Assembly: GCA_963791145.1 (NCBI GenBank) | Contig: CAWBRT010000004.1 | Coordinates: 11,217-75,216, forward strand | Direction of reading: 5' to 3' | Source: an uncultured Acidobacteriota bacterium | GTDB taxonomy: Bacteria; Acidobacteriota; Terriglobia; Terriglobales; Acidobacteriaceae | Length of the DNA: 64,000 nucleotides | Shown: positions 1,679 to 35,233 of the stretch, in pieces | Layout: every line of letters begins with the position of its first letter | How positions within the stretch are numbered: the stretch's first letter is position 1 | Notes under the pieces: model-generated | What the model was told of the DNA's origin: nothing | Databases searched by the model: none | Seen by the model: only the letters and a program-made list of their open reading frames with translations | Program-made: the position numbers and the translations under genes

Positions 1679-1951
1679 TCAGCCTCCGCCCGCAACGGCC
1701 GCGACCAGCACCACTTGATCGCCAGATTTGACAGGCGCTTCCAACCTATCGGGTCCGATCAACTCGTCGTTCAGAAATACCGCCATAATCGGGTTGACAA
1801 CGCCATCCCGGATCCAAATCGAGCGTGCCAGTTGGGGGTGTCTGTCAGTCAGCGTTTCCAGAGCTTTCCTCACCGTATCCGCGGAAACGTAGACGCAGCT
1901 AACCCCGCCGATTCGCTCTTCAAGAAAGTGGGAAAGGCGGATTTGCACCAT
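1679..1951 (-). CDS. MoaD/ThiS-family sulfur-carrier protein
   Basis: Ends ...VAAVAGGG (C-terminal Gly-Gly); an AAGGAG RBS lies before the internal Met (MVQIRLSHF...); positioned immediately downstream of the AOR gene. Confidence 0.55.
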   Translation of the reverse strand: MVQIRLSHFLEERIGGVSCVYVSADTVRKALETLTDRHPQLARSIWIRDGVVNPIMAVFLNDELIGPDRLEAPVKSGDQVVLVAAVAGGG

Positions 1952-3774: not shown

Positions 3775-4421
3775 CGTCTCCTTCTCAATCGCAGCAAGGT
3801 CGCGCCCTGGGCTGGACGCTTTGTTGTCAAGAAACGAGACGACGATACTTCGACCACTTAGGCATGTCAAGCCGCTTGAGGGGGCGCGTCCTTATGATCT
3901 GCGGAACCGGCTTGATGCGCACCGGATTTTCAATTCGACACACCTGGCGGAGCAAACACCTGATCAGGCAAAGTCCAGGGTCCGTAAGCCAGCAAGGGCA
4001 ACCAAAGCAGCGAAAGGTGGGAAAAGGCCGGCGAGCGGTTGCCCGCGATTGCAGCTCCTGAGGCCGTGATAGCGCGAGGACTCACAGGATGTCGTGACAT
4101 ACGTCACATTCTGTATCACGCGCTCGCATGTATTATCGCGCAACTTTTGATTGTGTGTGGAAAATTGTGCTCTGAATATTCTTTGTTTTCGACCAACATG
4201 TCGTTTCGGGGTGATCGCCTGTCTAAGGGGCGCTGGCAATTCTGAAAAAGCGCTGGTTTTCCACGTGGACTGATCAAGAGAGGCAACAGACTTGGTCTGC
4301 GGGACATATTGGCGAATTCGCATGAACCGCGATCACGAACGGGTTTACGATCAGAGCTTTCCGACCAGTCTGCAGGGGATAAAGATCAAGCAATATCTAG
4401 CTCACAAAATAAGGGGGAAGT

Positions 4422-6589: not shown

Positions 6590-6680
6590 CGAAACTCGAT
6601 TCTGTACTGTTTCCCAATTGCCATTCCCAAGGCAGATGCGCACGGATGCGGGTCGAGTTACAAAGAGGGACGTCGAACAA

Positions 6681-8519
6681 ATGAAGCAGGAAACTGTTGT
6701 CGGCGAGCGCTCCGTCCGTTCAAGCTGGGAGCTGCTGCGGACTCTCGTGGAGCCCAGGGTCTATCTCAGCGTAGTCGCTCTCTTAGTGCTGCTGGCGATT
6801 CCGATTGCGGTGGACTCTTCGTTTGTCTACCACGTTTTTGTCACCATCTGTTTGTATGGCGCGCTGGCCATCGCCTGGAATATTGTTGGCGGTTACGTGG
6901 GGCAGCTCTCGCTTGGCCATGCCAGTTTTTACGGCATCGGCGGATACACGTCGGTACTTTTGCTGGATCATTATCAGATTTCTCCTTGGCTCAGCATGTG
7001 GATTGGGGCTGCTTTGGCAGCATTAGTTGGGGTGGCCATCAGCTATCCATGCTTCCGGTTGCGCGGGCCATTCTTTGCTCTGGGCTCAATCGCCTTCCTG
7101 CAGGTCTTTCGGCTTCTGGTCGTGCATGAAAGCGCTCTGACCGGCGGAGCATCGGGCTTGATCGTGCCGCTGAATCTCGGATGGAAGTGGATGATCTTTC
7201 AGGAAAAGGAGCCGTACTTACTGATCGCCTTTGGATTCCTGTCCGTCAATCTTCTGATCTCGTTGGCCATCAGGAAATCGCGTTTCGGCTACCAAGCGCT
7301 GGCGGTTCGCGAGCGGGAAGATGCCGCCATGGCTGCCGGGATCAACACCGTCCGGGTCAAAGTCTTTGCCGTGCTGATCTCAGCAGCGCTCACGGCCATG
7401 GTGGGCTCGTTCCACGCCATGTACATGACCTTCATCGACCCTCCGACGATGTTTTCGCTGGAATTTTCCATACAGATCACCATGTTTGCCCTCATCGGCG
7501 GACTCGGCACGGTCGCCGGTCCGCTGGCCGGCACACTCTTGGTGGTTCCGCTGACCGAGTTGGCCCGAGGATGGTTGGGCGGTGCTGCCGGTGGGTTGCA
7601 CGGCTTCGTGTACGGAGTAGTGCTGCTGATCATCGTGTTGCTGCTGCCGGCGGGAATCGTTGGCCGCTTTGGACCTGCTATTTCAAGGTTAGTCAATCGC
7701 TTCCCGGGTACGCGCCCGATCGGTGAACCGGAGGTGATGGCGGACTTTCCCCGGATTGTGACCCATGTTGCCGAGGGCCAGCCTATGCTGTCGGCGAAGA
7801 ACATCGTCAAGCGCTTTGGCGGCTTGGCCGCGACCGACAACGTCACTATGGATTTGCGCAAAGGAGAGATTCTGGGACTGATCGGGCCGAACGGGGCGGG
7901 AAAGACAACGATCTTCAACCAGTTGTCGGGGTTTATCGTTCCGGACTCGGGGACGGTCGAGGTGATTAACGAGGCTGGCCATAAGGTCTCTCCCACGGCA
8001 CCCCACGAATTCGCCAAAGCAGGAATCGGGCGAACCTTTCAAATTGTTCAGCCCTTCGGCAAGCTCACAGTTTTGGAAAACATCGTGATCGGGGCGCTCC
8101 ACAAATGTCGCTCCACTTCCGACGCTCGTCTAAAGGCGCTCAAAGTTGCCCGGCAAGTGGGGCTTTACGAAGACCGGTACACGGTCGCCAACAACTTGAC
8201 CATCGGTGGCCTAAAGCGCCTTGAGGTGGCTCGGGTTCTGGCAATGGAGCCGCAGATTCTGCTTCTGGATGAGGTCATGGCCGGTCAGAATCTCACCGAT
8301 GTCAACCTCTCAGTGGAGATGATTCGCAAGATCCGCGACAAGGGTGTCACCGTCATCGCCATTGAGCACAACATGCATGCCATCATGAGGATATCCGATC
8401 GGGTTATCGTCTTTAACTCTGGGCGCATTATCGCCGAAGGGACTCCCGGGGAAGTGGCCCGAGATCCGGCAGTTATTGAAGCTTATTTGGGCGAGGAATA
8501 CATCCATGCTCAAGCTTAA
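6681..8519 (+). CDS. Fused LivM-type permease and LivG-type ATPase
   Basis: N-terminal ~330 aa polytopic permease; C-terminal Walker A GPNGAGKTT, signature LTIGGLKRLEVAR and Walker B LLLDEV; AGAGGGA RBS before the ATG at 6681. Confidence 0.75.
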   Translation: MKQETVVGERSVRSSWELLRTLVEPRVYLSVVALLVLLAIPIAVDSSFVYHVFVTICLYGALAIAWNIVGGYVGQLSLGHASFYGIGGYTSVLLLDHYQISPWLSMWIGAALAALVGVAISYPCFRLRGPFFALGSIAFLQVFRLLVVHESALTGGASGLIVPLNLGWKWMIFQEKEPYLLIAFGFLSVNLLISLAIRKSRFGYQALAVREREDAAMAAGINTVRVKVFAVLISAALTAMVGSFHAMYMTFIDPPTMFSLEFSIQITMFALIGGLGTVAGPLAGTLLVVPLTELARGWLGGAAGGLHGFVYGVVLLIIVLLLPAGIVGRFGPAISRLVNRFPGTRPIGEPEVMADFPRIVTHVAEGQPMLSAKNIVKRFGGLAATDNVTMDLRKGEILGLIGPNGAGKTTIFNQLSGFIVPDSGTVEVINEAGHKVSPTAPHEFAKAGIGRTFQIVQPFGKLTVLENIVIGALHKCRSTSDARLKALKVARQVGLYEDRYTVANNLTIGGLKRLEVARVLAMEPQILLLDEVMAGQNLTDVNLSVEMIRKIRDKGVTVIAIEHNMHAIMRISDRVIVFNSGRIIAEGTPGEVARDPAVIEAYLGEEYIHAQA

Positions 8520-9210: not shown

Positions 9211-9575
9211 CAGGTTACTGAAGAACGCGCCTCGGCACCGAGCGAGGCGCTCCGGAATGTGGAACTCAAAGGAAATCTCCGCAACCGCCGGCGATCTGAA
9301 CCTGCCAGAAATTCGTTTTCAGCAACCTGTTAGAGCAGTTCTTCTGCAAGGTGCATGCCCAATTCGACACCTAATCCTGAGCGACCGGCGGCCTACGTCC
9401 GGCGTGAGGAAGTTCAAGGATTACGCGGGCATGCTTGGTCGAAGGTAGTAGAATTTGGTCGCGCAAGAACAGCTCGACCTCGGGATGACCGCCTGGGGCT
9501 TTTCGACAGGGTTTGCACTCGGGCCTAAACGCAGCAAGCATCAGCAACCGGTCAGACACTCCGTCGTGTAGCAGG

Positions 9576-10400
9576 ATGAATATGCCCATCACGATAAACG
9601 GCGATACCCAACTCTACGCGATCATCGGCGACCCGATTTTCCAGGTCCATACCCCGGAGATGATGAACGGGCTTTTTGCGCGGGAGGGACTTAATGCCGT
9701 CATGGTCGCCATTCACGTTGCGCCGCAAGGATTCCAAGCGGCAGTGAAGGCGTTTCGTGTCATGAAGAACATGCGCGGCTTTATTGCGACCGTACCGCAC
9801 AAGCCAGCCGCTGCCGCCCTGTGCGATGAAATCGGAGAGACGGGCCGCGCCATCGGTGCAGTCAACGCTGTGCGGCGGGAAGCCGATGGAAGGCTGGTGG
9901 GGGAAATGTTTGACGGCGCCGGCTTTGTCGCTGGCCTGCGGGAGCACGGGCACTATCCTGCCGGCCTTCGCGTGCTGCTCCTGGGCGCGGGAGGCGCCGC
10001 CGCCGCTATGGCCTTCGCGCTGGCACAGGCCGGGGTGGCTTCTCTGACCATCGCCAATCGCACGCGTTCGAAGGCAGAGAGCATTCAGGCGCTGGTGAGG
10101 AAGTCTTTCCCCGACCGGATCGTCAAGGTAGGGGAGGCCGATCCCACCGGCCACGATCTGATCATCAATGCTACCTCTTTAGGAATGAAGCCCGACGATC
10201 CGCTGCCGCTCGATGCTTCTCTATTGACACCCGACATGAAGGTTGCCGAAGCCATTGCCAAGCCGGAGTTCACGCCGCTTTTGACTACGGCCAGGACCAA
10301 GGGCTGTATCGTGCACTCCGGGCGTCACATGCTCGAGATACAAGCAAACATGTGGATGGACCATTGGTGGCCGAAACAATCCGCGAAAAGCAAGGAATAA
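9576..10400 (+). CDS. Shikimate/quinate 5-dehydrogenase family oxidoreductase
   Basis: Substrate-domain motifs (NGDTQLYAIIGDPI, ATVPHK) and the Rossmann motif LLGAGGAAAAMAFAL. Confidence 0.65.
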   Translation: MNMPITINGDTQLYAIIGDPIFQVHTPEMMNGLFAREGLNAVMVAIHVAPQGFQAAVKAFRVMKNMRGFIATVPHKPAAAALCDEIGETGRAIGAVNAVRREADGRLVGEMFDGAGFVAGLREHGHYPAGLRVLLLGAGGAAAAMAFALAQAGVASLTIANRTRSKAESIQALVRKSFPDRIVKVGEADPTGHDLIINATSLGMKPDDPLPLDASLLTPDMKVAEAIAKPEFTPLLTTARTKGCIVHSGRHMLEIQANMWMDHWWPKQSAKSKE

Positions 10401-10473: not shown

Positions 10474-11580
10474 ATGAAAAGAGAAGCTTGTGCCGTATTG
10501 CTGGAAGAGTTCAATAAGCCATTTCGCGTTAAGACATTTGAGATACCGGAGGTGAAGAAGGGGTGTGCCCTGGTCAAGGTCGAGTTCGGAGGCATTTGCG
10601 GAACCGATGGTCACCTCCAGCAGGGCAAGCTGCCGATTCCTCTACCTATCATTCTGGGCCACGAGGCTGTCGGAATCATCGCCGAACTCGGCGAGGGGGT
10701 GACCCAGGACGTTACCGGAAATCCGATTGCGGTGGGCGATCGAGTCATATGGGCGTCGAGTATTCCCTGCGGCCAATGCTACTGGTGTAAAATCGTCCGC
10801 GAACGCAATCTTTGCGCAACCCGCAAGGTTTACGGCATCAATCAGCCCGCTGACAAGTGGCCATTCATCTCCGGAAGTTGGGGAGAGTATGCCTATCTTC
10901 AGGAAGGATCCTGCATTATCAAGGTGCCCGAGGGGCTCACCGGCGAAGACGTGATTGCGCTCGGCTGCGCCGGTCCTACGGCTGTCAACGGCGTTATCTA
11001 TAACACAAAAGTAAGCCTGGGTGACACCGTGGTTGTCCAGGGATCAGGACCGGTGGGAGTCGCAGCGGCCATCTACGCCAGAATCTGCGGCGCCAAGAAG
11101 ATCATTATGGTCGGCGGGCCCGAGAACCGTCTCAAGGTTGCCAAAGACATGGGCATTGCCGATGTGACGTTCGACATTTTCACCATGACCGATGGAGCTG
11201 AGCGGATCAAGAGCGTTCTGGCGGAGACAACGGACAACCGGGGCGCGGACGTATGTCTGGAGTGTACCGGCACCCCGGCTGCGGTCCCGGAAGGTTTTGA
11301 AATGGTCCGGCGGAAAGCCCACTACCTGGTGCTTGGCCAGTACACTGACAAGGGGTCTACCCCAATCAATCCACATGTCATTACGAGAAAGGAATTGATC
11401 GTTACTGGTTCTTGGGCGAGGGCTGAGGTCCACGACGTGAAATACGTCGAGTCTCTTCCCGAAATAAAGAAACGAATCAACTTGGGCAGCCTGGTAACGT
11501 CATTTGCCATGAAGGATATCAACGAGGCGGTCGAAAGTGTCCGGGCAGGCAAGGTGATCAAGGCCGCTTTGAAATTCTGA
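10474..11580 (+). CDS. Zinc-dependent alcohol dehydrogenase (MDR superfamily)
   Basis: GHEAVG catalytic-zinc motif, a structural-zinc cysteine cluster (CGQCYWC) and the Rossmann motif VQGSGPVG. Confidence 0.8.
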   Translation: MKREACAVLLEEFNKPFRVKTFEIPEVKKGCALVKVEFGGICGTDGHLQQGKLPIPLPIILGHEAVGIIAELGEGVTQDVTGNPIAVGDRVIWASSIPCGQCYWCKIVRERNLCATRKVYGINQPADKWPFISGSWGEYAYLQEGSCIIKVPEGLTGEDVIALGCAGPTAVNGVIYNTKVSLGDTVVVQGSGPVGVAAAIYARICGAKKIIMVGGPENRLKVAKDMGIADVTFDIFTMTDGAERIKSVLAETTDNRGADVCLECTGTPAAVPEGFEMVRRKAHYLVLGQYTDKGSTPINPHVITRKELIVTGSWARAEVHDVKYVESLPEIKKRINLGSLVTSFAMKDINEAVESVRAGKVIKAALKF

Positions 11581-11673
11581 TCCGTTTCGAAAAGCTGCCG
11601 GGAGATTGCGGTTGTAGTTCTCGTCGCAGGAGCTATAACCGCGACGAATTACTCTTGGAGAAAGGAGGGCCAT

Positions 11674-12672
11674 TTGCATTCACAGCAGATGACCTACGTC
11701 AAGCTTAGGCAATACGGTCCGCCGGAGGGCTTGGTTGCCGACTATGCTGAAGTTCCCGCTCCCCGCGAAGGCGAGGTGTTGATCAAAGTGGCCGCCGCGG
11801 GCGTGAATCGGCCGGATGTGTTGCAGAGGCTCGGCATTTATGCGCCTCCGCCCGGAGCTTCCGATGTCTTGGGGCTGGAAGTGTCCGGCACCGTGGCTGC
11901 GCTCGGAGAGCATGTCCAAACGTGGAAGATCGGTGACAAGGTCTGTGCGCTGGTAGCTGGAGGCGGTTACGCTGAGTATTGTCTGGCCCCCGCTCCGCAG
12001 TGCCTCTCCGTGCCCAAAAGGCTCAGCATGGTTGAAGCAGCAGGCATTCCGGAAACGTTCTTCACCGTATGGACGAATGTTTTTGAACGTGGAAGGCTTC
12101 AGGCGGGAGAGAAGATCCTGATCCATGGAGGATCGAGCGGCATTGGCACCACCGCAATCCAGCTTGCGAAGCAGTTCGGGGCAGAGGTGTTCACCACCGC
12201 GGGCAGCGAAGATAAGTGCCTCTTTTGCAAGAAGCTGGGCGCCGACGTGGCGATCAACTATCGCACCAGCGATTTCGTCGAGGAGGTCAAGAAGCGCACT
12301 GGCGGAGATGGGGTCGATCTGATTCTCGATATGGTGGGTGGTCCCTACATCGAGAAGAACATCAAGTCGCTTAAGGTTGAAGGGCGCCTGGTGCAGATCG
12401 CCTTTTTGCAGGCGAGCAGGGTTACACTCGATTTCATGCCGATCATGTTGAAGCGCTTGACCTTCACCGGTTCCACGCTCCGTCCGCGCACGGTCGAGCA
12501 GAAATCCGAAATTGCGAAAGCGCTGAGGCAGAAGGTGTGGCCGCTTCTGGAAGCAGGGAAGGTGAAGCCGATCATCCACTCAACCTTTCCGCTCGCCGAG
12601 GCCGCCGCGGCGCATCGGCTGATGGAAAGCAGCCAGCACATCGGGAAAATCATACTGACGGTGGAATCATGA
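11674..12672 (+). CDS. NAD(P)H:quinone oxidoreductase (zeta-crystallin/Qor family, MDR)
   Basis: No zinc ligands; Rossmann motif IHGGSSGIGTTAIQLAK; typical Qor length and layout. Confidence 0.75.
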   Translation: MHSQQMTYVKLRQYGPPEGLVADYAEVPAPREGEVLIKVAAAGVNRPDVLQRLGIYAPPPGASDVLGLEVSGTVAALGEHVQTWKIGDKVCALVAGGGYAEYCLAPAPQCLSVPKRLSMVEAAGIPETFFTVWTNVFERGRLQAGEKILIHGGSSGIGTTAIQLAKQFGAEVFTTAGSEDKCLFCKKLGADVAINYRTSDFVEEVKKRTGGDGVDLILDMVGGPYIEKNIKSLKVEGRLVQIAFLQASRVTLDFMPIMLKRLTFTGSTLRPRTVEQKSEIAKALRQKVWPLLEAGKVKPIIHSTFPLAEAAAAHRLMESSQHIGKIILTVES

Positions 12673-18713: not shown

Positions 18714-19115
18714 CTACCAGATGGTGTCCACGACCTTTGCTGCCCGAATACACTCGTCGGCCGTGACCAATGGGCACCCTTCGATGATGGCGGTAGAACC
18801 GATCAAACGGTCGGCGGGGTCTTTCGGATAGTTTGCCGGGAGCCGTACAGCCAGGGCGGCAATTTCGGGGGTCAAGGGGCGGAGAATGACCCTTGAAACG
18901 GTTTCGCGGACAAACGACTCCACCGTGCCGGCAACATGGATGCGCCCATGCTGCGCGAGCCAGGCCAGCTCCCATAGTGTGATCGTCGCTACGGCGAGAG
19001 CGCTGCTCTGGCGTGCCTTGCGGATTGCTTCCCGGGCCTTCCTGGAGAGCCGTTTCGGCTCGGCAGCCATCCAGATGAGGGTGTGAGTGTCGAGCAGGAT
19101 CATTTGTTCTCCCAA
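18714..19115 (-). CDS. vapC: PIN-domain toxin VapC
   Basis: ILLDTHTLIW ... PADRLIGSTAIIEGCPLVTADE; classic PIN acidic residues. Confidence 0.8.
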   Translation of the reverse strand: MGEQMILLDTHTLIWMAAEPKRLSRKAREAIRKARQSSALAVATITLWELAWLAQHGRIHVAGTVESFVRETVSRVILRPLTPEIAALAVRLPANYPKDPADRLIGSTAIIEGCPLVTADECIRAAKVVDTIW

Positions 19116-19330
19116 TCTTCCAGCGGCGTGACGGGCGCGACGATGTCACCGAGAATCGTCACTTTTCCAGCCATATAGCCAAAAACCTCATCCCCGGTCG
19201 ATTCGGCCGGGACGAGCTTTGCCACCGGCTTGCCGTGCTTTGTAATCAGCACCGGCTCGCCGCTCTGCTGCACCTGGTTCATGATGGCAAGGCATTGAGA
19301 TTTGAAGTGACCTGCGGGTATTTCCTTCAT
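19100..19330 (-). CDS. Phd/YefM-family antitoxin
   Basis: 76 aa; ...GEPVLITKHGKPVAKLVP... is the Phd/YefM signature; overlaps the vapC start. Confidence 0.8.
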   Translation of the reverse strand: MKEIPAGHFKSQCLAIMNQVQQSGEPVLITKHGKPVAKLVPAESTGDEVFGYMAGKVTILGDIVAPVTPLEDWENK

Positions 19331-19937: not shown

Positions 19938-20234
19938 CTACTTCTTCGGCGGCACGATTGCCTCCTTCGTCGCCTTCGCCAAATAGAATTTCGCCACCGT
20001 CTTCGCCTTAATCTTAATCGGCTCGCCGGTCCGGGGGTTACGACCCATCCGGGCTTTCCGCTGTACCTTCTTCAACCGCCCTAGGCCGGGAAGAACGAAT
20101 ACCCCGGTCTTCTTAGCCTGTGCTACCGCCAGTTCCGCCAGATAATTCAAAAAAGCCGCAGACTGCTTGTTGGTGATTTCGTTTTTCTCGGCCAGAAACC
20201 GAATCAACTGGGTCTTGGTCATTGTTGCTGCCAT
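19938..20234 (-). CDS. HU/IHF-family DNA-binding protein
   Basis: ...GRNPRTGEPIKIKAKTVAKF... is the HU arm motif; a lysine-rich C-terminal tail is present. Confidence 0.85.
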   Translation of the reverse strand: MAATMTKTQLIRFLAEKNEITNKQSAAFLNYLAELAVAQAKKTGVFVLPGLGRLKKVQRKARMGRNPRTGEPIKIKAKTVAKFYLAKATKEAIVPPKK

Positions 20235-23187: not shown

Positions 23188-25013
23188 TTGTGTTCCTCAT
23201 ATGTTGCAAATCCTGAATACAGCGCGTCCAAGCGGAACGGGATGGCTAAACTACTGTCGGTGAACGTCGGACTTCCACGCGATATCGCAGTGGAAAGGCC
23301 GCACTGTGCACACCGGGATCTGGAAGAATCCGGTGCACGGCCGCTGTCGGGTCGGCCGGTTGAATCTGGCGGGAGACGGTCAAGGCGACTTGGCCGGGCA
23401 CGGGGGCGAGCATCGAGCCGTCTTCGTCTACCAGATTGAATCGTATCGCTATTGGCAGGAGCAGCTGAAGAGGACCGACTTCGTCCACGGACAGTTCGGC
23501 GAGAATTTCACGATCGAAGAGGATTGCCCGACGATGCGGTATGCATCGGCGACCGTTATCAGATCGGCAGCGCGCTGTTCGAGGTCACTCAACCTCGCGT
23601 CACTTGCTATCGCGTCGGCATTCGGATGAACGAGCCCCGGATGGCGGCATTGCTGACCTCCAGCGGACGGCCGGGGTTCTACTTCCGCGTTCTGCAGGAA
23701 GGCGAGGTGGGTGCGGGCGACGAAATCGTGAAGGTGGGAGAGGCGGAGGAGCGAATGACCGTCGCGGAGATCAACGCGCTCCTCTATTTGCCCAATCATG
23801 CACGCGATCGGCTGGAGCGCGCATTGCGGATCGAAGCGCTTTCGCCCGGATGGCGCTGGTTCGTTTGAGGCGTTACTGCAGAGCCCAACAACTGCCGCGG
23901 GAAGTGGAAACGCGGGGCTCGCGCCGGCAGCAGCCGCGCATCCGGCTGCACCAGGATTTCGGCCGCTCGCGGTGACGGCAATCGATCGCGAGTCTGCGGA
24001 CGTGCTCTCGTTGACGATGCAGAGCCCGGACGGTCATCCGCTGCCGACGGCTCTGCCGGGCCAGTACGTGGTTGTGCGTCTTCAGCCGACCGACCGGCGG
24101 CGCGCCGTTCTTTCGCAGCTACTCGCTCTCGGGTCCTCTCTCGGCGGAGCGCTATCGAATCAGCGTGAAGATCGAGCCGAATGGAGCGGCCGGAACCTAC
24201 CTGCGGGAGCATGTCCGTGTGGGCGATGCTCTCGACGTCAGCTCGCCGCGCGGAAGCTTCATTCTTGCAGTCGGGAGAGCGGCCGGTCGTGCTGCTCAGC
24301 GCGGGAATCGGGGCGACGCCTGTTCTGGCGATGCTGCACGCGCTGGCGGAGTCCCGCTCAGCACGGCAGGTCCTGTGGCTGCACGCCGCTCGCGATCGGC
24401 AACATCATCCATTCGCCGCCGAAGTCCGCCGCCTCATGCTCGCGCTCCCGCAACGGCCGCAGCTACGTTTGTTACAGCAGGCCGGGCCCCAACGACAAGA
24501 AGGGTGAGGATTTCGACGCTGCCGGTCACCTGTCGCGACCGGTGTTCGACGAGGTCGGTGTTCCACGAGAGGCGGACGTCTACCTCTGCGGGCCCAACTC
24601 GCTTCATGGCAGACATGAAAGAGGCGCTCACTACTATGGGTGTCGCGCCGGAGCGGATTCACGTCGAAATCTTCAACGGCAGCGAGTCGATGACTCCGGG
24701 CGTCGTCGGCGCAGCGAAGGCGAACTCCGCATGTGCCGCGTGACGACGGCAACACCGGTCCGCTGGTATCGTTCGCGCGCAGTGGCATCGCCGCACACTG
24801 GAAGGCGTCGGCTACCAGAGCATTTTAGAGCTGGCCGAGGCGTGTGATGTTCCGGTCCGTTGGTCGTGCCGGACCGGTGTTTGTCACAGCTGTGAGAGTG
24901 GTTTGGTTTCGGGGGCGGTCGTCTACGGGCCGGAGCCCCTCGAAAAGCCCGCCGACGGCAACCTTCTCATTTGCTGCTCGCAACCGGCCGGCGACGTCGT
25001 CATCGATTTGTGA
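23188..25013 (+). pseudogene. MOSC domain + FAD/NAD(P)-binding reductase + 2Fe-2S ferredoxin fusion gene, split over at least six frames
   Basis: MOSC motifs in 23188-23868 across three frames (GDGQGDLAGHGGEHRAVFVY; FEVTQPRVTCYRVG); FNR-like segments (RPLAVTAIDRESADV; RYRISVKIEPNGAAGTYL; VVLLSAGIGATPVLAML); ferredoxin CRTGVCHSCESG...LICCSQP at the end. Confidence 0.6.
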
Positions 25014-25149
25014 GCCTGACCGGGGTTCGGAAGAATCACACCTCTAACTTCCCATAACGCGGTTTTGGGCCCCTGCCCGTAGTGGAAGGAGAGGCTGACA
25101 AACGCCAGAGGCCGATAGCGGCCAGAGGGTCTCAGGCGGAGAATGATGG

Positions 25150-28283: not shown

Positions 28284-29483
28284 TTACTTACTTATGGCCG
28301 CGATCGACTTGCCGGTTGGCAGAAGCCTGCGATAGATGCTCTCAATCTGTTGGTGGCTCAGCTTCTTGGGATTGTTCACTAAGAGCCTGGTTACTTTAAG
28401 GGCCGCCCGTGCGAGTCCATCGATGTCCTTGTCTTCGACACCATAGTCCCCCAAGTTCTGCGGTATTCTCAATTCGGCGATCCATTCCTGAATACGCCCA
28501 ATTACTGCTGAACCAAGGGTCGATGTATCCCCGTGCACACCCATTGCCTTCGCCACCTCGGCCATCCGTGGCTGAATCGCGTCGGCATTGAATTCCGTGA
28601 CATGCGGGAACAGCATCGAGTTGGAAACGCCGTGCGGAATCCCGAACTTCCCTCCCAATGGGTAAGCCAACGCGTGAACGGCGGCGGTGCCTGCCGACGT
28701 TATTGCCATTCCTCCATAAAGCGCTCCCAGCATCATTCCTTCTCTGGCCTCGAGGTTGTCGGGCTGTTTGTACGCGATCAAGATATTCCGGGAGACCAGC
28801 CGCATGCCCTCGATGGCGAACAGATCGGCGATAGGGTTCGCCTTCGTCGAGATAAAGGATTCGAACGAGTGGATGAACGCGTCCATGCCGGTGAATGCCG
28901 TCACGAACGGCGGGAGTCCTACGGTGACCAGCGCATCGATCAGGACGAGCGCGGGAAGGAGATACCGGCTGACAACACCGATCTTCAGTTCCTGTTCCGG
29001 CAGGGTAACAATAGCATTCGGGGTTGCTTCCGATCCGGTTCCCGCGGTGGTCGGGATGAGTACGGTCGGGATCCCGGGCTTTGCAACCAGGTTTACACCC
29101 AGCATGTCTTCCAGCTTTTGGCTGTTGGTGCGCAATACTGCCACCAGTTTCGTGGCATCCATGACACTGCCGCCGCCAAAGCCAATCAAGACATCGTAAT
29201 TCTCGCCCGCGGTCTGCCGGTGGACCTCTGTAACGTTCGCGGCGGTCGGTTCAGACAGAACACTATCAACTACGCTCACCGCAATGCCGGAGTTGCTCAA
29301 CTGCTGGACAATCTGATCCACCATGCCACTGTCTCTGAGTGACGGCTGCGTCAGAAGCAACACGCTTCTGGCACCCAGTGCAGATTGCAGTTCATGGCTT
29401 AACGTGGCCAAGCACCCCGAGCCCGCAACAATCTCGCTCGCCGTAGCAAACTTATACGGCTTCGATACGTTCTTGATCGACAT
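28284..29483 (-). CDS. Iron-containing alcohol dehydrogenase (Fe-ADH family)
   Basis: GFGGGSVMDATK and later histidine motifs (HGVSNSMLFPHVTEFN). Confidence 0.85.
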   Translation of the reverse strand: MSIKNVSKPYKFATASEIVAGSGCLATLSHELQSALGARSVLLLTQPSLRDSGMVDQIVQQLSNSGIAVSVVDSVLSEPTAANVTEVHRQTAGENYDVLIGFGGGSVMDATKLVAVLRTNSQKLEDMLGVNLVAKPGIPTVLIPTTAGTGSEATPNAIVTLPEQELKIGVVSRYLLPALVLIDALVTVGLPPFVTAFTGMDAFIHSFESFISTKANPIADLFAIEGMRLVSRNILIAYKQPDNLEAREGMMLGALYGGMAITSAGTAAVHALAYPLGGKFGIPHGVSNSMLFPHVTEFNADAIQPRMAEVAKAMGVHGDTSTLGSAVIGRIQEWIAELRIPQNLGDYGVEDKDIDGLARAALKVTRLLVNNPKKLSHQQIESIYRRLLPTGKSIAAISK

Positions 29484-29974
29484 CTCTCTGATCCTTCCCC
29501 GATCCTTCAGGCTTTCACAACAGTTTCCAGTAACCCGATCGGCAACACGTCATTCGGAGTGTCAGTTTGTCGCTTTGGCGAACCCTCCCAGCCCCTGATG
29601 AAACATTATTAGCGTCTTGGCGTTGTGATCAAGTATCAGGTGAACGCCAGGCAGGGGGTATTCAAACCCCGATACGGTTCTCCTATGCCGGTTTCGCAAA
29701 CCGCCGCCCCCTACCCTAAGCCACTCGGACATGTCTCGTCGGCGGCAGCCACCAGCCTTTGCACCGGTCAGGGAGGCCAGGTGCGGTAATGATGTGCCTG
29801 TCCAGTTCCTCAACTCCAACCGCTGCGGCCGCTGCTCCTGTAAGGCACCCCGATATTGTAACGGAAGCCATCCATCATGTCGGCGGCAAATCCTCAGCCG
29901 GAATCAGTCTGGTGCTACGAAAACGACAAGAGACGAACCTGGGTCAAGCGGCTTCGAGACAGCCGCTTGGAGGA

Positions 29975-30055
29975 CGCGATCCCGAAGTCGGCTTCTGGGA
30001 ACTCAGCCTCTGGCTTCCCAGAACGCGGTTTCGGGGTCCCGAAACCGAACCGCTT
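29975..30055. repeat. REP/MITE-like palindromic element, compact copy
   Basis: cccgaagtcggcttctgggaACTCAGcctctggCTTCCCAGAACGCGGTTTCGGGgtcccgaaaccg: two nested hairpins. Confidence 0.55.
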
Positions 30056-30176
30056 TATCGGCTTTGGCCCATGGCCAACGTCCATATCCTGACGTTTCGG
30101 TGCAACTGTCTGCGGGCAAAGGAAATTCAGGTCTTGACATATCACAATATGCAATTATAATATCGCAATCTGTTAT

Positions 30177-30725
30177 ATGAAACTAGGCGACAAGCTTCGC
30201 TACCTGCGCCTGATGGAAGGTACGCTTCGCGGCCTGGGCCGGGAGATGACCCAGCAGGAATTGGCGCGGGCTCTGAAGGCTGAGTCAGGCAAGAGCCTAA
30301 GCCAGTCATACTTGTCACAAATAGAAAATGGCGCTCGCCCCCACTTGACGAACTCTTCGCGTATGCTGCTCGCCAGGTTTTTCAAAGTGCATCCGGGATA
30401 TCTCGTGGACGACCCCGACGGGTATCACGCCGAGTTGTTGTCGGATTTGCGCGTCCTGGAAGACACCCTCGATCTGTGGCTAATCGCGGGCGCCGAACGT
30501 TTCCGCCGCGATCCGGAGATCCGCCACGCGCTGTTGCAGTTGGCCAAGCATGATGATTCGCGCAAATGCCTGGTCCTGCTGGCGGCAATCCTTGAGACTC
30601 CCAAACTCGTGGATCGCTTGATGGAAGTGCTGAAACCGGAGAGAGCGGTCGGGATGAGGGCAAACGCGCGCCAACCGAGTCAGAGCATCAGCGGCGCTAT
30701 CGTAGGGCCTGGGGGGAACCCATGA
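30177..30725 (+). CDS. XRE-family HTH transcriptional regulator with an uncharacterised C-terminal domain
   Basis: HTH segment TQQELARALKAESGKSLSQSYLSQIENGARPH; ATGA coupling to the next gene. Confidence 0.65.
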   Translation: MKLGDKLRYLRLMEGTLRGLGREMTQQELARALKAESGKSLSQSYLSQIENGARPHLTNSSRMLLARFFKVHPGYLVDDPDGYHAELLSDLRVLEDTLDLWLIAGAERFRRDPEIRHALLQLAKHDDSRKCLVLLAAILETPKLVDRLMEVLKPERAVGMRANARQPSQSISGAIVGPGGNP

Positions 30726-31363
30726 CGATTACTGACATGTACCTAATCTGCTTCATCGTGGGCCTGCTGTTGAGTCTGATCTCCTTTATCTTTGGCACGC
30801 TGCATCTCCACGCACAACTTCCGCTCATCGGACATGCTCCCCACCTGCCTCATGTTGGCCATACGGGTCCGCAATCTCCGCATGGCAGTGGCGGGTCAGA
30901 GGTGCCGCTGTTCAACTTCGGGACGGTAACCGCTTTTCTTGCCTGGTTTGGAGGTGTCGGGTACCTGTTGACACGGCACACCAGCCTGTATGCAGTTACG
31001 GCCGTTGTGCTCTCGTCGCTGGCAGGCGTCGTTGGTGCGGCTTTTGTCTTCCTGTTCGTCGCCAAGGTGCTGATGAAGCATGAGAAGAACCTGGACCCGG
31101 CGGACTACTCAATGATCGGCGTTCTCGGATTAGTAGTTAGCCCCATTCGTCAGGGTGGCACAGGTGAGATTGTTTACTCGCAGGAGGGCGTGCGGTGCGT
31201 AACTGGCGCACGAAGTGATGCGGAAGCGACGATTTCGAGGGGCGTGGAGGTAGTGGTGACGCGGTACGAAAAGGGAATTGCCTACGTTCGGCCATGGGAG
31301 GAGCTTTCCGCTTCGGGGCAGGGCGCCTCGAAGAACGATTCGGTACAAGTAAGGAGCGACTAG
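30722..31363 (+). CDS. NfeD-like membrane protein (short YuaF type)
   Basis: N-terminal TM helices and a C-terminal OB-like soluble domain (GTGEIVYSQEGVRCVTGARSDAEATISRGVEVVVTRYEKGIAYVRP); sits before an SPFH gene as in yuaF-floT. Confidence 0.55.
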   Translation: MTITDMYLICFIVGLLLSLISFIFGTLHLHAQLPLIGHAPHLPHVGHTGPQSPHGSGGSEVPLFNFGTVTAFLAWFGGVGYLLTRHTSLYAVTAVVLSSLAGVVGAAFVFLFVAKVLMKHEKNLDPADYSMIGVLGLVVSPIRQGGTGEIVYSQEGVRCVTGARSDAEATISRGVEVVVTRYEKGIAYVRPWEELSASGQGASKNDSVQVRSD

Positions 31364-31381
31364 CTCGCATCAAGGAGGCAC

Positions 31382-32852
31382 ATGCCATTCCAGATTCCAA
31401 TCGATGTCTGGATCATAGCTGGACTTTTGGTACTGGTTGTTCTAGCTCTCTTCGGGGTATTTGCGAAGCTGTACCGGAAAGCCGGCCCGCACGAGGCGCT
31501 GGTCGTCTTCGGCTTCCGCGGCACACGAATTGTGAAGGGGCACGGCACAGTTATTGTTCCGATGATTGAAAACGCCCTTCAGCTTTCGCTTGAACTGATG
31601 TCGTTCGACGTGGCGCCAAAACAGGACCTCTACACCAAGCAGGGCGTTGCCGTCACTGTGGAAGCGGTCGCGCAGATAAAGGTGAAGTCCGACCCCGAAT
31701 CGATATTAACCGCAGCCGAGCAATTCCTGACAAAAGATTCCGACCAACGGGAAGGCCTTATCCGCCTGGTGATGGAAGGCCACTTGCGCGGCATCATCGG
31801 GCAGCTGACGGTCGAAGAGATAGTCAAGCAACCCGAAATGGTCTCCGACCGCATGCGGTCCACCTGTGCTGATGACATGAGCAAGATGGGCCTGGAGGTG
31901 ATCTCGTTCACCATCAAGGAAGTCCGCGACAAGAATGAGTACATCACGAACATGGGCCGTCCCGACATCGCACGCATCAAGCGCGATGCCGATGTGGCCG
32001 GCGCGGAAGCGGAGCGTGACACAGCCATCAAGCGTGCCAATGCTCAGCGTGAGTCTGCCGTCGCCAAGGCGCAGGCGGATCAGGAACGAGTGATGGCCGA
32101 GACTGCTCTCGCTAGCCAAACAGGCGAAGCGCAGCGCGATCTCGACGATCAAGAAGGCTCAATACCTCGAGAGATCACGCAAGCGCCAACAGGCGCAGGC
32201 CGACAAGGCTTACGAGATCGCAGACTAACGTCATGCAGCAGCAGGTGGTGGTTGAGGCAGGTGAAGGTGCAGCAGGTGGAGAAGGAGCAGCAGATCAAGG
32301 TGCAGGAGGCCGAGATCGCGCGCCGCGAAAAGGAACTGATCGCAACGGTGCTGAAGGAGGCGGAGATCGAGCGCCAGCGCATCGAGACCCTGGCGCAAGC
32401 CGAGAAGCAACGCTTGACGATGGAGGCCGAAGGTAAGGCCGCATCGATTCGCGACCAGGGCGAAGCCGAAGCCGAGATCATCTTCAAGAAAGGTGAGGCC
32501 GAAGCGAAGGCCATGAACGTGAAGGCGGAAGCTTTCCAGGAGTACAACCAGGCGGCGGTCATCGATAAGCTGCATCACCGGCATGCCGGAAGTGGCTGCG
32601 CGCCTTGGCGACACCGCTGAGTCAAGTGGATCAAGCATCACCATGGTTTCCACAGGAAATGGAGCATCGGCAGGAGTGAACAAGATCACCGGTGACATTG
32701 CGCAAATGGCTGCGCAGGTTCCTGCGCTGTTCGAGGCGCTTTCCGGCATGAGCGTGCAGGAAATGCTCTCGAAGGTACGACTAATCGGAGACAAGTCTCC
32801 AAAGCCGGGGCGGGGCGATGACACGCCCGCATCCGGCGATTCGAAGAGATAA
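31382..32852 (+). pseudogene. Flotillin (SPFH/band-7, FloT-like) gene with several frameshifts
   Basis: SPFH domain intact in 31382-32100; the EA-repeat region (VKVQQVEKEQQIKVQEAEIARREKEL...) and the C-terminal VSTGNGASAGVNKITGDIAQM segment are in other frames, with three frame changes within ~130 bp around 32120-32240 and one near 32575. Confidence 0.65.
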
Positions 32853-32955
32853 CAATCACCCCAACAGACGTAAAGTAGCGCCTGTCGGGGACCCGGCCGT
32901 CGGGCGCACTCCTCGTCGAGGTTTTTCGGGGAAAGGCGCAGTAGAAGGAGGTTCT

Positions 32956-33627
32956 ATGGCACTGCTGGAAAGAGTCGCAACCCTGATTCGCGCAAACCTG
33001 AATGATCTGGTGGATCGTGCGGAAAACCCAGAGAAGATGATCAAGCAGATTATCCTCGACATGCAAAATCAGTTTATACAGGTGAAAACACAGGTGGCGA
33101 TTGCACTGGCCGACCTGCACCTGCTGGAGAAGAAAAAGCAGGAGTACGAGGCCGGCAATCTGGAATGGATGCACAAGGCCGAGTTGGCGGTGGAAAAACA
33201 GAGAGATGATCTGGCGCGGGGGGCGCTAGAACGAGCAATGTCTTTGTCCCAACTGGCAAAGAGCTTTGACGAGCAAATTGGCGACCAGAGGACACAAGTC
33301 GATCTCTTGAAGAGTGCGCTCCGTGATCTCGACCGCAAGATTACCGAAGCGCAGGCGAAAAGCGACCTGCTGATCGCTCAGCATAGACGTTCACGGGCCG
33401 TGAGCCGCGCCGCTGATGCCAACTTCAAGGCCGCGAATAAAAGCAAGTCGGGAGCACTCGACCGCTTGAAGACGACTATTCAGCAGGAGGAGGCAATCGG
33501 CCAGGCGAAAGTCGAGCTTTCTGGCCAGGAGATCGAGGAGAAATTCGCATCCCTGGAAAGGGAAGAGGAGATCGAGCGGCTACTGCGGGAAATCAAGACG
33601 AAGGCTCGCAAGGGCCTTACGGCGTAG
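32956..33627 (+). CDS. pspA: PspA/IM30-family protein (phage-shock protein A / Vipp1-like)
   Basis: GAAGGAGG RBS; N-terminus MALLERVATLIRANLNDLVDRAENPEKMIKQIILDM is the PspA signature; coiled-coil remainder. Confidence 0.8.
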   Translation: MALLERVATLIRANLNDLVDRAENPEKMIKQIILDMQNQFIQVKTQVAIALADLHLLEKKKQEYEAGNLEWMHKAELAVEKQRDDLARGALERAMSLSQLAKSFDEQIGDQRTQVDLLKSALRDLDRKITEAQAKSDLLIAQHRRSRAVSRAADANFKAANKSKSGALDRLKTTIQQEEAIGQAKVELSGQEIEEKFASLEREEEIERLLREIKTKARKGLTA

Positions 33628-33870
33628 GCGGTGAGTCTCACTCTTGGTCGGTTATTAGGCTTTTCTTATCCCGGATTCGGAGCGAACGGAAGAGATAGAA
33701 TGGGCCACTCGCGAGTGTTCGAAGGCGCATGGTTTGGTTGCCTGTCACGTAGCAGCTTGGCTATGCAGTCAGGTGTCGGCTGGTGAAAGATGTTGAGCCG
33801 CATTAACCGGTTACGACTCAGTGGGGGCTTTTGTCGTTTGATCCCTCAGGCCGAACTTTGGCGAGAAGTT

Positions 33871-34150
33871 GTCCCGAAGTCGGATTCTGGGAAGTTAGAA
33901 GATCTGGTGGCAGTTGCTGTCAATTGTGGGCAAGTGGCGCCAATCCGGGAACTGATCGAGAGCCGCCCGGATCAGTACCGATAAACGCCCCTTGATCCAT
34001 CTATTCGCGGCGGCCCGCGCGGTTCTGGATTCGCGGATGCCTAACCGACTTTTCGGTACTGATCAGCTTGGTCCCGGACTATACCTGGATCGACGACCAT
34101 CCGTCCAGCACCGTCGTTCCTAACTTCCCAGAACGCGGTTTCGGTGTCCC
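33871..34150. mobile_element. MITE-like element: same arms as the REP-like family, but separated by ~220 bp of unrelated sequence
   Basis: Left arm gtcccgaagtcggattctgggaagttag (33871-33898) and right arm cctaacttcccagaacgcggtttcggtgtccc (34119-34150) form an imperfect inverted repeat. Confidence 0.45.
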
Positions 34151-34329
34151 TGGAGATCATCAGCTTCCGCGCGAAGGGAGTACTTCAACAATTACTTCCG
34201 AGTTGTCGACTACTCAGACATGATTATCGCGTTTGCGATGTCATCGGAACGATCCGATAATGACTATTCGCCTGAAGGTTAGCTGGTCGGCGAGCCGATT
34301 CAACGGCCGATGAGCACGCGATCAGGCCC

Positions 34330-35106
34330 TTGACTATGAAGAAGCTCCCACGAAAAGCTCGACGCACGGGAAAGCCAGATCTGGGTTCAGCCCACGCGGA
34401 CCGGCATCCGCCTCATTTCTCCCGAGAGATTTCCGTCCTTTACGACGATGATGCCGTGGTCGCTCTCAACAAACCGCCCGGACTCTTATCTGTACCCATC
34501 AAAGGCTCCAAGGCTCCGTCCGCTTTGTCTCTGCTTAATGCAGATCTCAAGCTGAAGAGAGAACGGGCATTGGTGGTGCATCGAATCGATCGGTTCGTCT
34601 CCGGCGTTCTGCTGTTTGCTAAGACCAAGCGGGATCGCGATGCGCTGGTAAAACAGTTTCTCGACCATACTCCAGCACGGCACTATCTCGCGGTAGTGCG
34701 CGGGCGACTCGACGCTCCAACGGGGACGCTCGTACATTATTTTCGACGTGCAGGAGTCTTTCAACAGTTGCGAACGGCGAGAGATCCTCAAGCTGCTCGT
34801 GCCGAACTTCGATATTCCGTCGAACGCCTTTATGCCGATACTTCGCTTGTTCGGATTGAGTTGGGGACGGGACTGCAGAATCAGATCCGAGCACAATTCT
34901 CGGCCATGGGGCACCCGGTCATTGGTGATAGAAAATACCATCCGACGGAATCGTCAGAGCCGCTCATTGCTCGCGTTGCTCTTCATGCTGCGCATCTTCA
35001 GTTTGTTCATCCACGTTCTGGAGAGAGTATCTCGATCGATTGCAAATTGCCCGCCGACTTTCGGTATCTGCTTCGAGAATTGTCCCAATCAAACCGTGCG
35101 CACTGA
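34330..35106 (+). CDS. RluA-family pseudouridine synthase
   Basis: HRIDRFVSGVLLFAK catalytic-Asp motif (HRLD-type). Confidence 0.8.
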   Translation: MTMKKLPRKARRTGKPDLGSAHADRHPPHFSREISVLYDDDAVVALNKPPGLLSVPIKGSKAPSALSLLNADLKLKRERALVVHRIDRFVSGVLLFAKTKRDRDALVKQFLDHTPARHYLAVVRGRLDAPTGTLVHYFRRAGVFQQLRTARDPQAARAELRYSVERLYADTSLVRIELGTGLQNQIRAQFSAMGHPVIGDRKYHPTESSEPLIARVALHAAHLQFVHPRSGESISIDCKLPADFRYLLRELSQSNRAH

Positions 35107-35180
35107 TAGCTCTCGTATCAGCGGGTGGCGAGATGAGAATCGTGCCCCCGTCACGGGCAATCGGGAGGCTGTTTCGGACC

Positions 35181-35233
35181 CTGAAGCCTGGTTCAGGAAA
35201 GTTAGACCCAATCTTCCCAGAACGCGGTTTCTG
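35181..35233. repeat. REP-like palindromic element, compact copy
   Basis: ctgaagcctggttcaggaaagttag-acccaat-cttcccagaacgcggtttctg. Confidence 0.5.

Follow-up and report, generated by a model that had tools for sequence, protein, structure and literature searches.

A conserved operon encoding an XRE-family regulator, NfeD, flotillin and PspA in Terriglobia

A gene neighbourhood combining HTH, NfeD, band7/FloT and PspA proteins has been described for Acidobacteriota by Popp et al. (2022; mSystems, PMC9239133). There, HTH regulators are encoded within the PspA operon and NfeD is a partner; the four-gene neighbourhood, including its association with an XRE-type protein, is thus already known for this phylum. 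The network predicted there agrees with the operon examined here in both composition and phylum. It is resolved at the level of Pfam domains and covers 19 PspA neighbourhoods, 11 of them with a band7_Flot domain, while the present analysis extends to at least 80 loci. The details added here are the gene order, the regulator family with its homology to EspR, the putative operators and the translational coupling, none of which was found in the text of that paper. A literature search on Acidobacteria with flotillin and phage shock protein gave no match.

Outside the Acidobacteriota, the pspA-ydjGHI (samGHI) operon of B. subtilis likewise encodes PspA together with an SPFH protein and membrane anchors, and the SPFH protein YdjI is required for recruitment of PspA to the membrane (PMC8581546). 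In that operon, however, pspA comes first, the SPFH protein is soluble and not a membrane-anchored flotillin of the FloT type, and the anchors are YdjG and YdjH, the latter with a TPM domain (Ravi et al., PMC11237479). Also, its transcription is under sigma-W, whereas the operon studied here encodes an XRE protein of its own. A short three-helix NfeD protein with a C-terminal soluble domain is encoded directly upstream of a FloT-type flotillin in yuaF-floT of B. subtilis and yqiJ-yqiK of E. coli, as is the case here, and the YqiJ/YuaF plus band-7/flotillin pair was reported from some PspA operons (Ravi et al., PMC11237479). Unlike in yuaF-floT and yqiJ-yqiK, the present pair is placed between a dedicated regulator gene and pspA, and its NfeD is only distantly related to YuaF (E=4e-5, by profile only).

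The mycobacterial clgR-pspA-pspM(-pspN) operon also begins with a gene for a small Cro/XRE-type HTH regulator. ClgR is autoregulated and reportedly modulated via a PspA-ClgR complex (PMC13622631, PMC11237479). It is, however, an activator confined to Actinobacteria, its operon is devoid of NfeD and flotillin genes, and it was not returned for the present regulator by the PDB profile search or by NCBIfam. The closest solved relative is instead EspR of M. tuberculosis (PDB 3QF3, 3R1F, 3QWG and 4NDW), which has the same two-domain layout of an HTH domain and a C-terminal helical domain. EspR is an autoregulated dimer of dimers (PMC3315491). It differs in regulating ESX-1 secretion genes from distant sites and in behaving as a nucleoid-associated protein, and its genomic context is unrelated to that described below.

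The window, as we call the whole 64-kb stretch of DNA analysed, carries four genes in one order, namely those for an XRE/HTH regulator, NfeD, flotillin and PspA. The initial annotation had identified them as an XRE protein, a YuaF-type NfeD, a FloT-like protein and PspA; all open reading frames are present where it placed them, and domain and profile matches confirmed each identity. A tblastn comparison with species-level Acidobacteriota loci, in which the genes were checked wherever the contig was long enough, revealed the same order and strand in 80 of 80 cases. The order was unchanged in L002, the closest relative, in L003 and L004, and also in a family member with only 42% identity (L087); it is invariant throughout the entire family of the regulator. 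This family is compact (502 clusters at 50% identity) and is encoded by at least 596 species genomes. Over the 80 loci compared, the regulator is 65–85% identical, which nearly matches the conservation of the flotillin, and the identities of the module proteins fall together from locus to locus. The copy in the window is an ordinary member of an operon present in hundreds of soil Acidobacteria. PADLOC returned no defence-system match for the module. Its breadth and the conservation of the regulator near that of the flotillin suggest a core envelope function.

The genes around the module differ in every relative examined. The neighbours in the window code for a CxxCxxCC-domain protein, an Fe-alcohol dehydrogenase, a pseudouridine synthase and an M20 peptidase (Pfam), and those flanking genes that were tested are housekeeping enzymes. 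Ordinary chromosomal synteny with relatives therefore holds for the gene order but not for the flanks. Dissimilar flanks are to be expected at protein identities of 65–85%, and the occurrence within one phylum, in at least 596 species and with identities falling together, fits vertical descent with eroded synteny.

Palindromic repeats occur on both sides of the module. On the left, an imperfect REP-like hairpin with two 32-nt arms (29975–30041) folds at −42.4 kcal/mol (z=−2.84). On the right, the same family is represented by two inverted arms of 25 nt each (33874–33898 and 34120–34144), 221 nt apart in a MITE-like layout; they are situated in the 702-nt spacer that precedes the gene for the pseudouridine synthase. 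Further members were found at 25048, 28187 and 35214. In total, the family comprises seven half-sites, distributed over five consecutive intergenic regions from 25 to 35 kb, against 0–0.09 expected by chance. The flanking REP-like elements noted previously are therefore real and far above chance, but they are not specific to the module. No RNA family was assigned to the repeats by Rfam, searched with the whole window and both long spacers. A reading of the repeat motif as a sigma-54 promoter was rejected, as inspection by eye gave no match to TGGCAC-N5-TTGC.

These repeats had led to the proposal of a portable cassette, in which the palindromes would mark the limits of a four-gene unit that is mobile or exchanged horizontally. 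The dissimilar flanks in all relatives would agree with such a unit, as would the limits of similarity to L002 (about 29992 and 33630), which are close to the repeat positions. We nevertheless consider it very improbable. L003 and L004 lack the repeats, and the orthologous site of L002 has kept no more than a diverged right arm; in the window, the repeats fill five successive intergenic regions instead of just the module edges. An exact 21-mer of the repeat is present in 26 metagenome contigs without any module gene, in about 15 unrelated contexts, and the right arm together with about 35 nt of subterminal sequence recurs in unrelated contigs. A tRNA search of the whole 64 kb was negative, GC content is 0.57 in module and flanks alike, and no integrase or transposase domain was detected by Pfam in the tested flanking genes. 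The wide distribution within a single phylum, with identities of the module proteins falling together, also argues against exchange. The repeats are probably a dispersed intergenic element unrelated to the operon. The locus is thus, with high probability, a chromosomal, vertically inherited four-gene operon of Terriglobia serving membrane maintenance or the envelope-stress response, with autorepression as proposed below and with frameshifts of artefactual origin.

The regulator gene (30177–30725, forward strand) encodes a protein of 182 aa. Pfam assigned HTH_3 to residues 22–76 (27.8 bits against a cut-off of 23; E=2.6e-6). The predicted architecture consists of an N-terminal HTH domain (1–80), a linker, a C-terminal four-helix domain (93–152) and a disordered tail. 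EspR was matched by the family profile over residues 23–86 with E=2.3e-9 and by the single sequence with 5e-6. The AF2 model has a pLDDT of 85, with a confident four-helix C-terminal domain, and the best 14 matches in a PDB fold search with this model were all EspR. The N-terminal domain superposes on that of EspR with a TM score of 0.71 and an rmsd of 3.7 Å; the full-length superposition is loose (TM 0.5–0.57 per target; rmsd 8–12 Å), as is the alignment of the C-terminal domains. Judged by profile and predicted fold, the regulator is a homolog of M. tuberculosis EspR in its N-terminal HTH domain.

Upstream of the regulator gene, we identified a sigma-70-type promoter (30134–30161, forward strand) composed of TTGACA (30134–30139), a 16-nt spacer and TATAAT (30156–30161). 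It matches the consensus at 12 of 12 positions and is the sole such match between 29400 and 34400. With its end 15 nt before the ATG of the regulator gene, the promoter leaves room for a very short leader at most, and a Shine-Dalgarno sequence is lacking. The same layout is shared by relatives. Two 15-bp palindromes are embedded in this region as putative operators: O1 (ATCACAATATGCAAT; 30141–30155) in the spacer between −35 and −10, and O2 (ATCGCAATCTGTTAT; 30162–30176) between the −10 hexamer and the start codon. The consensus of the operator family is ATTGCAAnTTGCAAT. O1 is the best site of the window with 20.2 bits, and O2, located 21 bp from it, scores 18.1 bits; the next best site reaches 9.4, and O1 and O2 are the sole sites within the 64 kb. 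Exactly two operator matches upstream of the start were present in 75 of 82 loci, a count that is partly circular because the matrix was trained on the upstream regions it scored. This circularity does not extend to the exact spacing, which was 21 bp in 75 of 75 loci, or to the absence of sites elsewhere, with only three matches outside that upstream position in 1.01 Mb of related loci.

The position of these palindromes, from which repression is deduced, makes it likely that the regulator represses its own promoter. Two palindromes 21 bp apart would also fit a tetramer. The relationship to EspR, the closest solved relative, offers a different reading, since EspR binds DNA atypically and is mainly an activator or nucleoid protein. 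It has many binding loci and turns on espACD from remote sites (PMC3315491); ClgR, too, activates its own psp operon (PMC13622631). The regulator would then be an activator or an EspR-like architectural protein of the nucleoid, or would mainly control genes elsewhere. This appears unlikely, because operators that cover the spacer, the −10 hexamer and the start region of a 12/12 promoter have the geometry of a repressor, because no further operator is present in the window or, apart from the three matches mentioned, in 1 Mb of related loci, and because the regulator was never seen away from the module in the loci compared.

The nfeD gene (30722–31363, forward strand) codes for a short YuaF-type protein of 213 aa; it contains three hydrophobic segments, its first loop is rich in His, and its C-terminal domain is of the OB-fold type. 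A profile of 13 NfeD family members matched the soluble domain of YuaF (PDB 2K14) with E=4.2e-5 over residues 123–195, covering that domain over its whole length, while the single sequence stayed under the threshold (PF01957, E=0.4; 2K14, E=0.38). A precomputed match to PF25842 (NfeD_TM) exists for an identical protein. No ClpP-type protease domain was detected in NfeD by Pfam. The TGA stop codon of the regulator gene (30723–30725) overlaps the ATG of nfeD (30722–30724) in the sequence ATGA. The translational coupling of these two genes suggested by the initial annotation is borne out by this 4-nt overlap, which can be read directly from the sequence and is kept in 62 of 81 loci. The flotillin gene begins 18 nt downstream of nfeD.

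The last gene (32956–33627, forward strand) encodes a PspA/IM30 family protein of 223 aa and is preceded by GAAGGAGG; the correct initiation codon is the ATG at 32956, and the gene does not begin at 32818. The PspA_IM30 domain was recognized with 104.5 bits (Pfam cut-off, 33.9) over profile positions 2–217 of 220, and an independent Logan contig encodes the exact product. A search 3' of pspA gave no intrinsic terminator. The PspA equivalog model TIGR02977 was not reached (115.8 bits against a cut-off of 242.95) and the neighbouring genes are not pspF, pspB or pspC, so an assignment to the classical proteobacterial Psp system was rejected.

Taken with the known systems, these features lead us to propose the following scheme. 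Two regulator dimers, assembled as a dimer of dimers in the manner of EspR, would bind O1 and O2 on the same face of the DNA and block access to the spacer, the −10 hexamer and the transcription start; the operon would thereby repress itself. Its mRNA would be nearly leaderless. The ATGA overlap would link translation of NfeD to that of the regulator, while flotillin and PspA would be translated from strong Shine-Dalgarno sites of their own. The three-helix membrane protein NfeD would partner the membrane-anchored flotillin, as in yuaF-floT, and the SPFH scaffold would bring the ESCRT-III-like PspA to damaged membrane, as YdjI does in B. subtilis. As a best guess, derepression would depend on PspA or NfeD signalling to the C-terminal helical domain of the regulator through a protein-protein interaction, by analogy with PspA-PspF and PspA-ClgR.

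A more elaborate version, which we regard as doubtful, would make the regulator a membrane-stress sensor that acts by partner switching. PspA or the cytoplasmic part of NfeD would bind the conserved C-terminal four-helix domain of the regulator, the conserved translational coupling would fix the ratio of regulator to NfeD, and recruitment of PspA to damaged membrane by the NfeD-flotillin scaffold would alter occupancy of the operators. If true, this would be a self-contained four-gene circuit of sensing and repair, and, next to PspF and ClgR, the third independently evolved link between PspA and transcription.

Terriglobia rank among the most abundant bacteria of soils. To our knowledge, the maintenance of their membranes in acidic and fluctuating soils has been little studied. 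The promoter-operator design and the EspR homology provide a testable handle in cultured members of Terriglobus or Silvibacterium, with Terriglobus sp. 2YAB30_2 and Silvibacterium bohemicum S15 among the carriers, and both would help to clarify the control of the PspA response in bacteria other than Proteobacteria, Firmicutes and Actinobacteria.

The flotillin gene (31382–32852, forward strand) encodes a FloT-like protein with Band_7 and Flot domains, of about 487 aa once corrected for the insertions that interrupt it. Band_7 was detected with 106 bits (Pfam). The NCBIfam FloT model was matched by two pieces from the window, at model positions 2–407 and 412–475, and the score of 241.8 bits against a cut-off of 700 identifies the protein as a family member and not as an equivalog of B. 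subtilis FloT. The corrected flotillin is free of stop codons and 87–89% identical to intact homologs. Identity to intact proteins of 484–487 aa is 87–88% over 98–100% of its length, and homologs at this level carry PF01145 and PF15975.

The insertions form two tight clusters. The first (32148–32259), with positions read from the alignment to L002, comprises single-nucleotide insertions at 32148, 32220 and 32259 and an in-frame insertion of three nucleotides at 32177–32179. The three changes of frame noted initially thus correspond to three +1 insertions within 112 bp. The second cluster (32572–32634) consists of +1 insertions at 32572 and 32598 and a +2 insertion at 32633–32634, which gives six frameshifting insertions in total. 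An independent, 99.6% identical contig (L005) lacks the insertions of the second cluster and reads through in frame. It differs from the window only within 32572–32690 and at one base in the remaining ~3.2 kb compared. Of two observations that would count against the initial reading, the same flanks in relatives and an intact flotillin, the second was thus made in near-identical sequence where L005 provides coverage; the first cluster is outside this coverage, and a 170-aa reconstructed query for it gave no near-identical independent sequence (best identity, 79–81%).

The broken reading frame is most likely an assembly error and not biology. The absence of the three 3' insertions from L005, together with frameshifts in other genes of the window (AOR and MOSC), points to such an artefact. 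Six frameshifting insertions could also mark a genuine pseudogene of the source strain, and a look-up of the exact 412-aa product of the frameshifted reading frame returned no record, while three neighbouring products are on record, as would be expected if the source record annotates the gene as a pseudogene. A pseudogene is nonetheless improbable. The frame is open in L005, with differences confined to the narrow interval given above, the corrected protein is stop-free and close to intact homologs, and changes that are clustered, consist of insertions only and avoid homopolymers are unlike gradual decay. Similar damage affects not only other genes of the window but also other MAGs, with multiple frameshifts in the flotillin genes of L034, L060 and L066. 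Programmed ribosomal frameshifting or other recoding would draw on the fact that the original frame returns after the first three +1 insertions and that frame 1 is open to 32620. It is extremely improbable, as six events in a single gene do not resemble recoding, the sites show no visible slippery motif, the gene is uninterrupted in homologs and three of the events are missing in the near-identical contig. With an assembly error as the preferred explanation, the practical message for the window is one of quality control, in that the broken flotillin should not be taken as gene loss. The second cluster and the in-frame 3-nt insertion are additional to what the initial annotation had recorded.

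The XRE regulator–NfeD–flotillin–PspA module at 30177–33627 is a known kind of locus, of which the copy in the window is an ordinary member, as follows from several earlier reports. The Psp network of Acidobacteriota was reconstructed in silico by Popp et al. 2022 (PMC9239133), while PspA operons with band-7/flotillin and YqiJ/YuaF proteins, as well as the ClgR–PspA operon of Actinobacteria, were described by Ravi et al. 2024 (PMC11237479). In B. subtilis, membrane recruitment of PspA requires the SPFH protein YdjI (PMC8581546). In mycobacteria, pspA shares its operon with the gene for the XRE-type regulator ClgR, which reportedly acts in a PspA–ClgR complex (PMC13622631). Added here from sequence comparison are an invariant gene order, homology of the regulator to EspR, a putative dual-operator promoter with a short leader, and a conserved translational overlap. 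The initial annotation is partly confirmed as an observation and partly supported in its interpretation.

ORF calling identified four ORFs on one strand. The regulator gene (30177–30725) codes for a protein with an HTH_3 domain above the Pfam threshold; the NfeD gene (30722–31363) was assigned by an NfeD_TM match and a family profile match to YuaF; the flotillin gene, starting at 31382, matched Band_7 (106 bits) and the FloT model; and the gene at 32956–33627 encodes a PspA/IM30 protein (104.5 bits). The gene calls made previously were correct. The single NfeD sequence fell below the NfeD threshold (E=0.4 for PF01957 and E=0.38 for YuaF); a 13-member family profile matched the soluble domain of B. 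subtilis YuaF (PDB 2K14) over its full length with E=4.2e-5, and the NfeD_TM match was precomputed for a protein identical to the NfeD of the window. The proposed coupling of regulator and NfeD also holds: the NfeD ATG overlaps the TGA stop of the regulator gene (ATGA), and this type of 4-nt overlap is kept in 62 of 81 loci. The loop between membrane helices 1 and 2 of NfeD (30800–30910, residues ~28–60) is His-rich (HLHAQLPLIGHAPHLPHVGHTG...) in all aligned relatives and variable in length; the segment may respond to metal or pH.

Conservation of the regulator is unusually high, with 76–93% identity to its 120 best clusters, the query's own cluster (100%) aside. Since just 502 clusters at 50% identity were found among 1.84 billion proteins, the family is compact. 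With each species represented by one genome, a scan detected at least 596 carriers; the best 80 carrier loci were nearly all labelled as Acidobacteriaceae, Terriglobales or Bryobacterales, and cultured Terriglobus and Silvibacterium are among them. In these 80 loci, tblastn located regulator, NfeD, flotillin and PspA in this order on a single strand wherever the contig was long enough, the sole exception being locus L078, in which NfeD was not detected. Even the locus of a 42%-identical family member (L087) keeps this order, with one extra gene inserted. In some relatives the operon contains inserted genes, among them DUF4019 and small ORFs. Locus L003 carries a DUF4019 protein gene (9507–9920) and a 54-aa ORF before pspA (11531–11695), L087 encodes a 250-aa protein without a Pfam match after the regulator (6604–7356), and L009, L016 and L047 contain inserts of 1–1.7 kb between NfeD and flotillin. 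Shared flanks in relatives, which the initial annotation would have read as ordinary synteny, were not observed: by tblastn, the flanking genes of the window were common to none of the 80 loci.

From 29400 to 34400, a full 12/12 match to the sigma-70 promoter consensus occurs once, as TTGACA-16-TATAAT at 30134–30161. Just 15 nt separate this promoter from the regulator ATG, and they contain no Shine-Dalgarno sequence. Relatives share the upstream design: TTGACA is followed by a 15-bp palindrome (consensus ATTGCAAnTTGCAAT), and a –10-like hexamer by another palindrome that precedes the ATG. A matrix built from the relatives' upstream sites gave 20.2 and 18.1 bits at window positions 30141 and 30162, and at most 9.4 bits elsewhere in 64 kb. 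Exactly two sites, always spaced by 21 bp, precede the start in 75 of 82 loci (1.01 Mb) and one site does so in the other seven, with only three weak matches elsewhere. As the matrix was trained on the same regions it scored, weight is placed on the invariant spacing and on the absence of sites elsewhere. The putative operators overlie the spacer and start region of the consensus promoter, which suggests autorepression. The ~90 nt between the right arm of the upstream repeat and the –35 hexamer (30042–30133) are ~85–90% identical to positions ~760–845 of L002, a relative with the same gene order. The palindrome GGTTTCGGGGTCCCGAAACC in this segment might serve as an additional regulatory site, or the similarity may just reflect recent common ancestry.

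The regulator family profile matched M. tuberculosis EspR over the HTH domain with E=2.3e-9 (5e-6 for the single sequence). The AlphaFold2 model (mean pLDDT 85) predicts an HTH domain (1–80), a flexible linker, a four-helix C-terminal domain (93–152) and a disordered tail. EspR chains filled the first 14 places among its PDB matches, ahead of CapH, DdrO, CI and SinR. EspR is an autoregulated two-domain HTH protein with C-terminal dimerisation and dimer-of-dimers binding (PMC3315491); two palindromes two helical turns apart would fit an EspR-type tetramer. Sensing of membrane state through direct contact of the regulator with PspA or NfeD is a rather doubtful possibility.

Frame changes in the flotillin gene were analysed by three-frame translation and DNA alignment to L002, the closest intact homolog (85% DNA and 89% protein identity). 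The three changes reported initially correspond to +1 insertions at 32148, 32220 and 32259, accompanied by an in-frame +3 at 32177–32179; a second cluster was also found at 32572 (+1), 32598 (+1) and 32633–32634 (+2). All changes are insertions, none inside homopolymer runs, and the frame-joined reconstruction shares, over 98–100% of its own length, 87–88% identity with intact flotillins of 484–487 aa. Regulator, NfeD and PspA proteins identical to those of the window are encoded on two short contigs that were assembled independently from run ERR11523656. One (L001) corresponds to 29920–31651 with one mismatch. The other (L005) corresponds to 32524–34153, differs only inside 32572–32690 and has none of the three insertions in the second cluster, so that the 3' part of flotillin is in frame; the first cluster lies outside it. 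Other window genes are also frameshifted. An aldehyde:ferredoxin oxidoreductase gene (1920–3857, minus strand) is broken over at least four reading frames, with AFOR_N in 2832–3857 and AFOR_C positions 23–83, 120–280 and 286–345 in three other ORFs; the damage is of the same kind as in flotillin. A MOSC/YiiM gene (23264–23868, plus strand) is spread over two frames, with MOSC positions 4–47 in 23264–23629 and positions 45–119 plus the YiiM 3-alpha domain in 23440–23868. Three further MAG loci likewise have a multiply frameshifted flotillin gene, broken over two, three or more frames (L034, 8248–9665; L060, 8275–9578; L066, 1903–2648). Taken together, these findings make errors in the consensus of the source assembly the most likely origin of the frame changes. 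As the near-identical contigs cover the second cluster and not the first, a slim chance is kept for a real pseudogene. Some metagenome assemblies may be prone to errors in the flotillin gene. Several truncated flotillin ORFs were also seen on very long contigs (P0432, P0444, P0466 and P0484).

The proposal of a portable cassette bounded by REP-like repeats was not sustained, as the repeats are dispersed and occur in unrelated contexts. The motif TTCCCAGAAC...TTC, present at 25048, 28187, 29984/30015, 33876, 34125 and 35214, fills five successive intergenic regions and occurs nowhere else in the window (~0.1 expected by chance). The core CTTCCCAGAACGCGGTTTCGG was found at 33874–34144, 25048, 28187 and 35177–35233 and in metagenome contigs L090–L115. 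Folding is clearly more stable than in shuffled sequences for the copy at 29975–30041 alone (z=–2.84); the copy at 33874–34144 resembles an element of 271 bp whose terminal inverted repeats measure 25 nt. Among relatives, L003 and L004 lack the pattern, and in L002 the orthologous position has kept only a diverged right arm. The exact 21-mer was detected in 26 metagenome contigs in ~15 different contexts, none with module genes or other similarity to the window; ~35 nt adjoining the right arm are conserved in unrelated contigs of peat or soil metagenomes (L094, L098 and L110). No Rfam family matched the repeats, which appear to form a dispersed REP/MITE-like family. The 64-kb window has no tRNA gene, GC content does not shift between the module and its flanks, and none of the tested flanking genes was a mobility gene. 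A small overlapping ORF pair at 18714–19330 (minus strand), which by eye resembles a PIN/VapC toxin and its antitoxin, lies among small genes in a region of lower GC and adjoins an HU-like gene (19938–20234).
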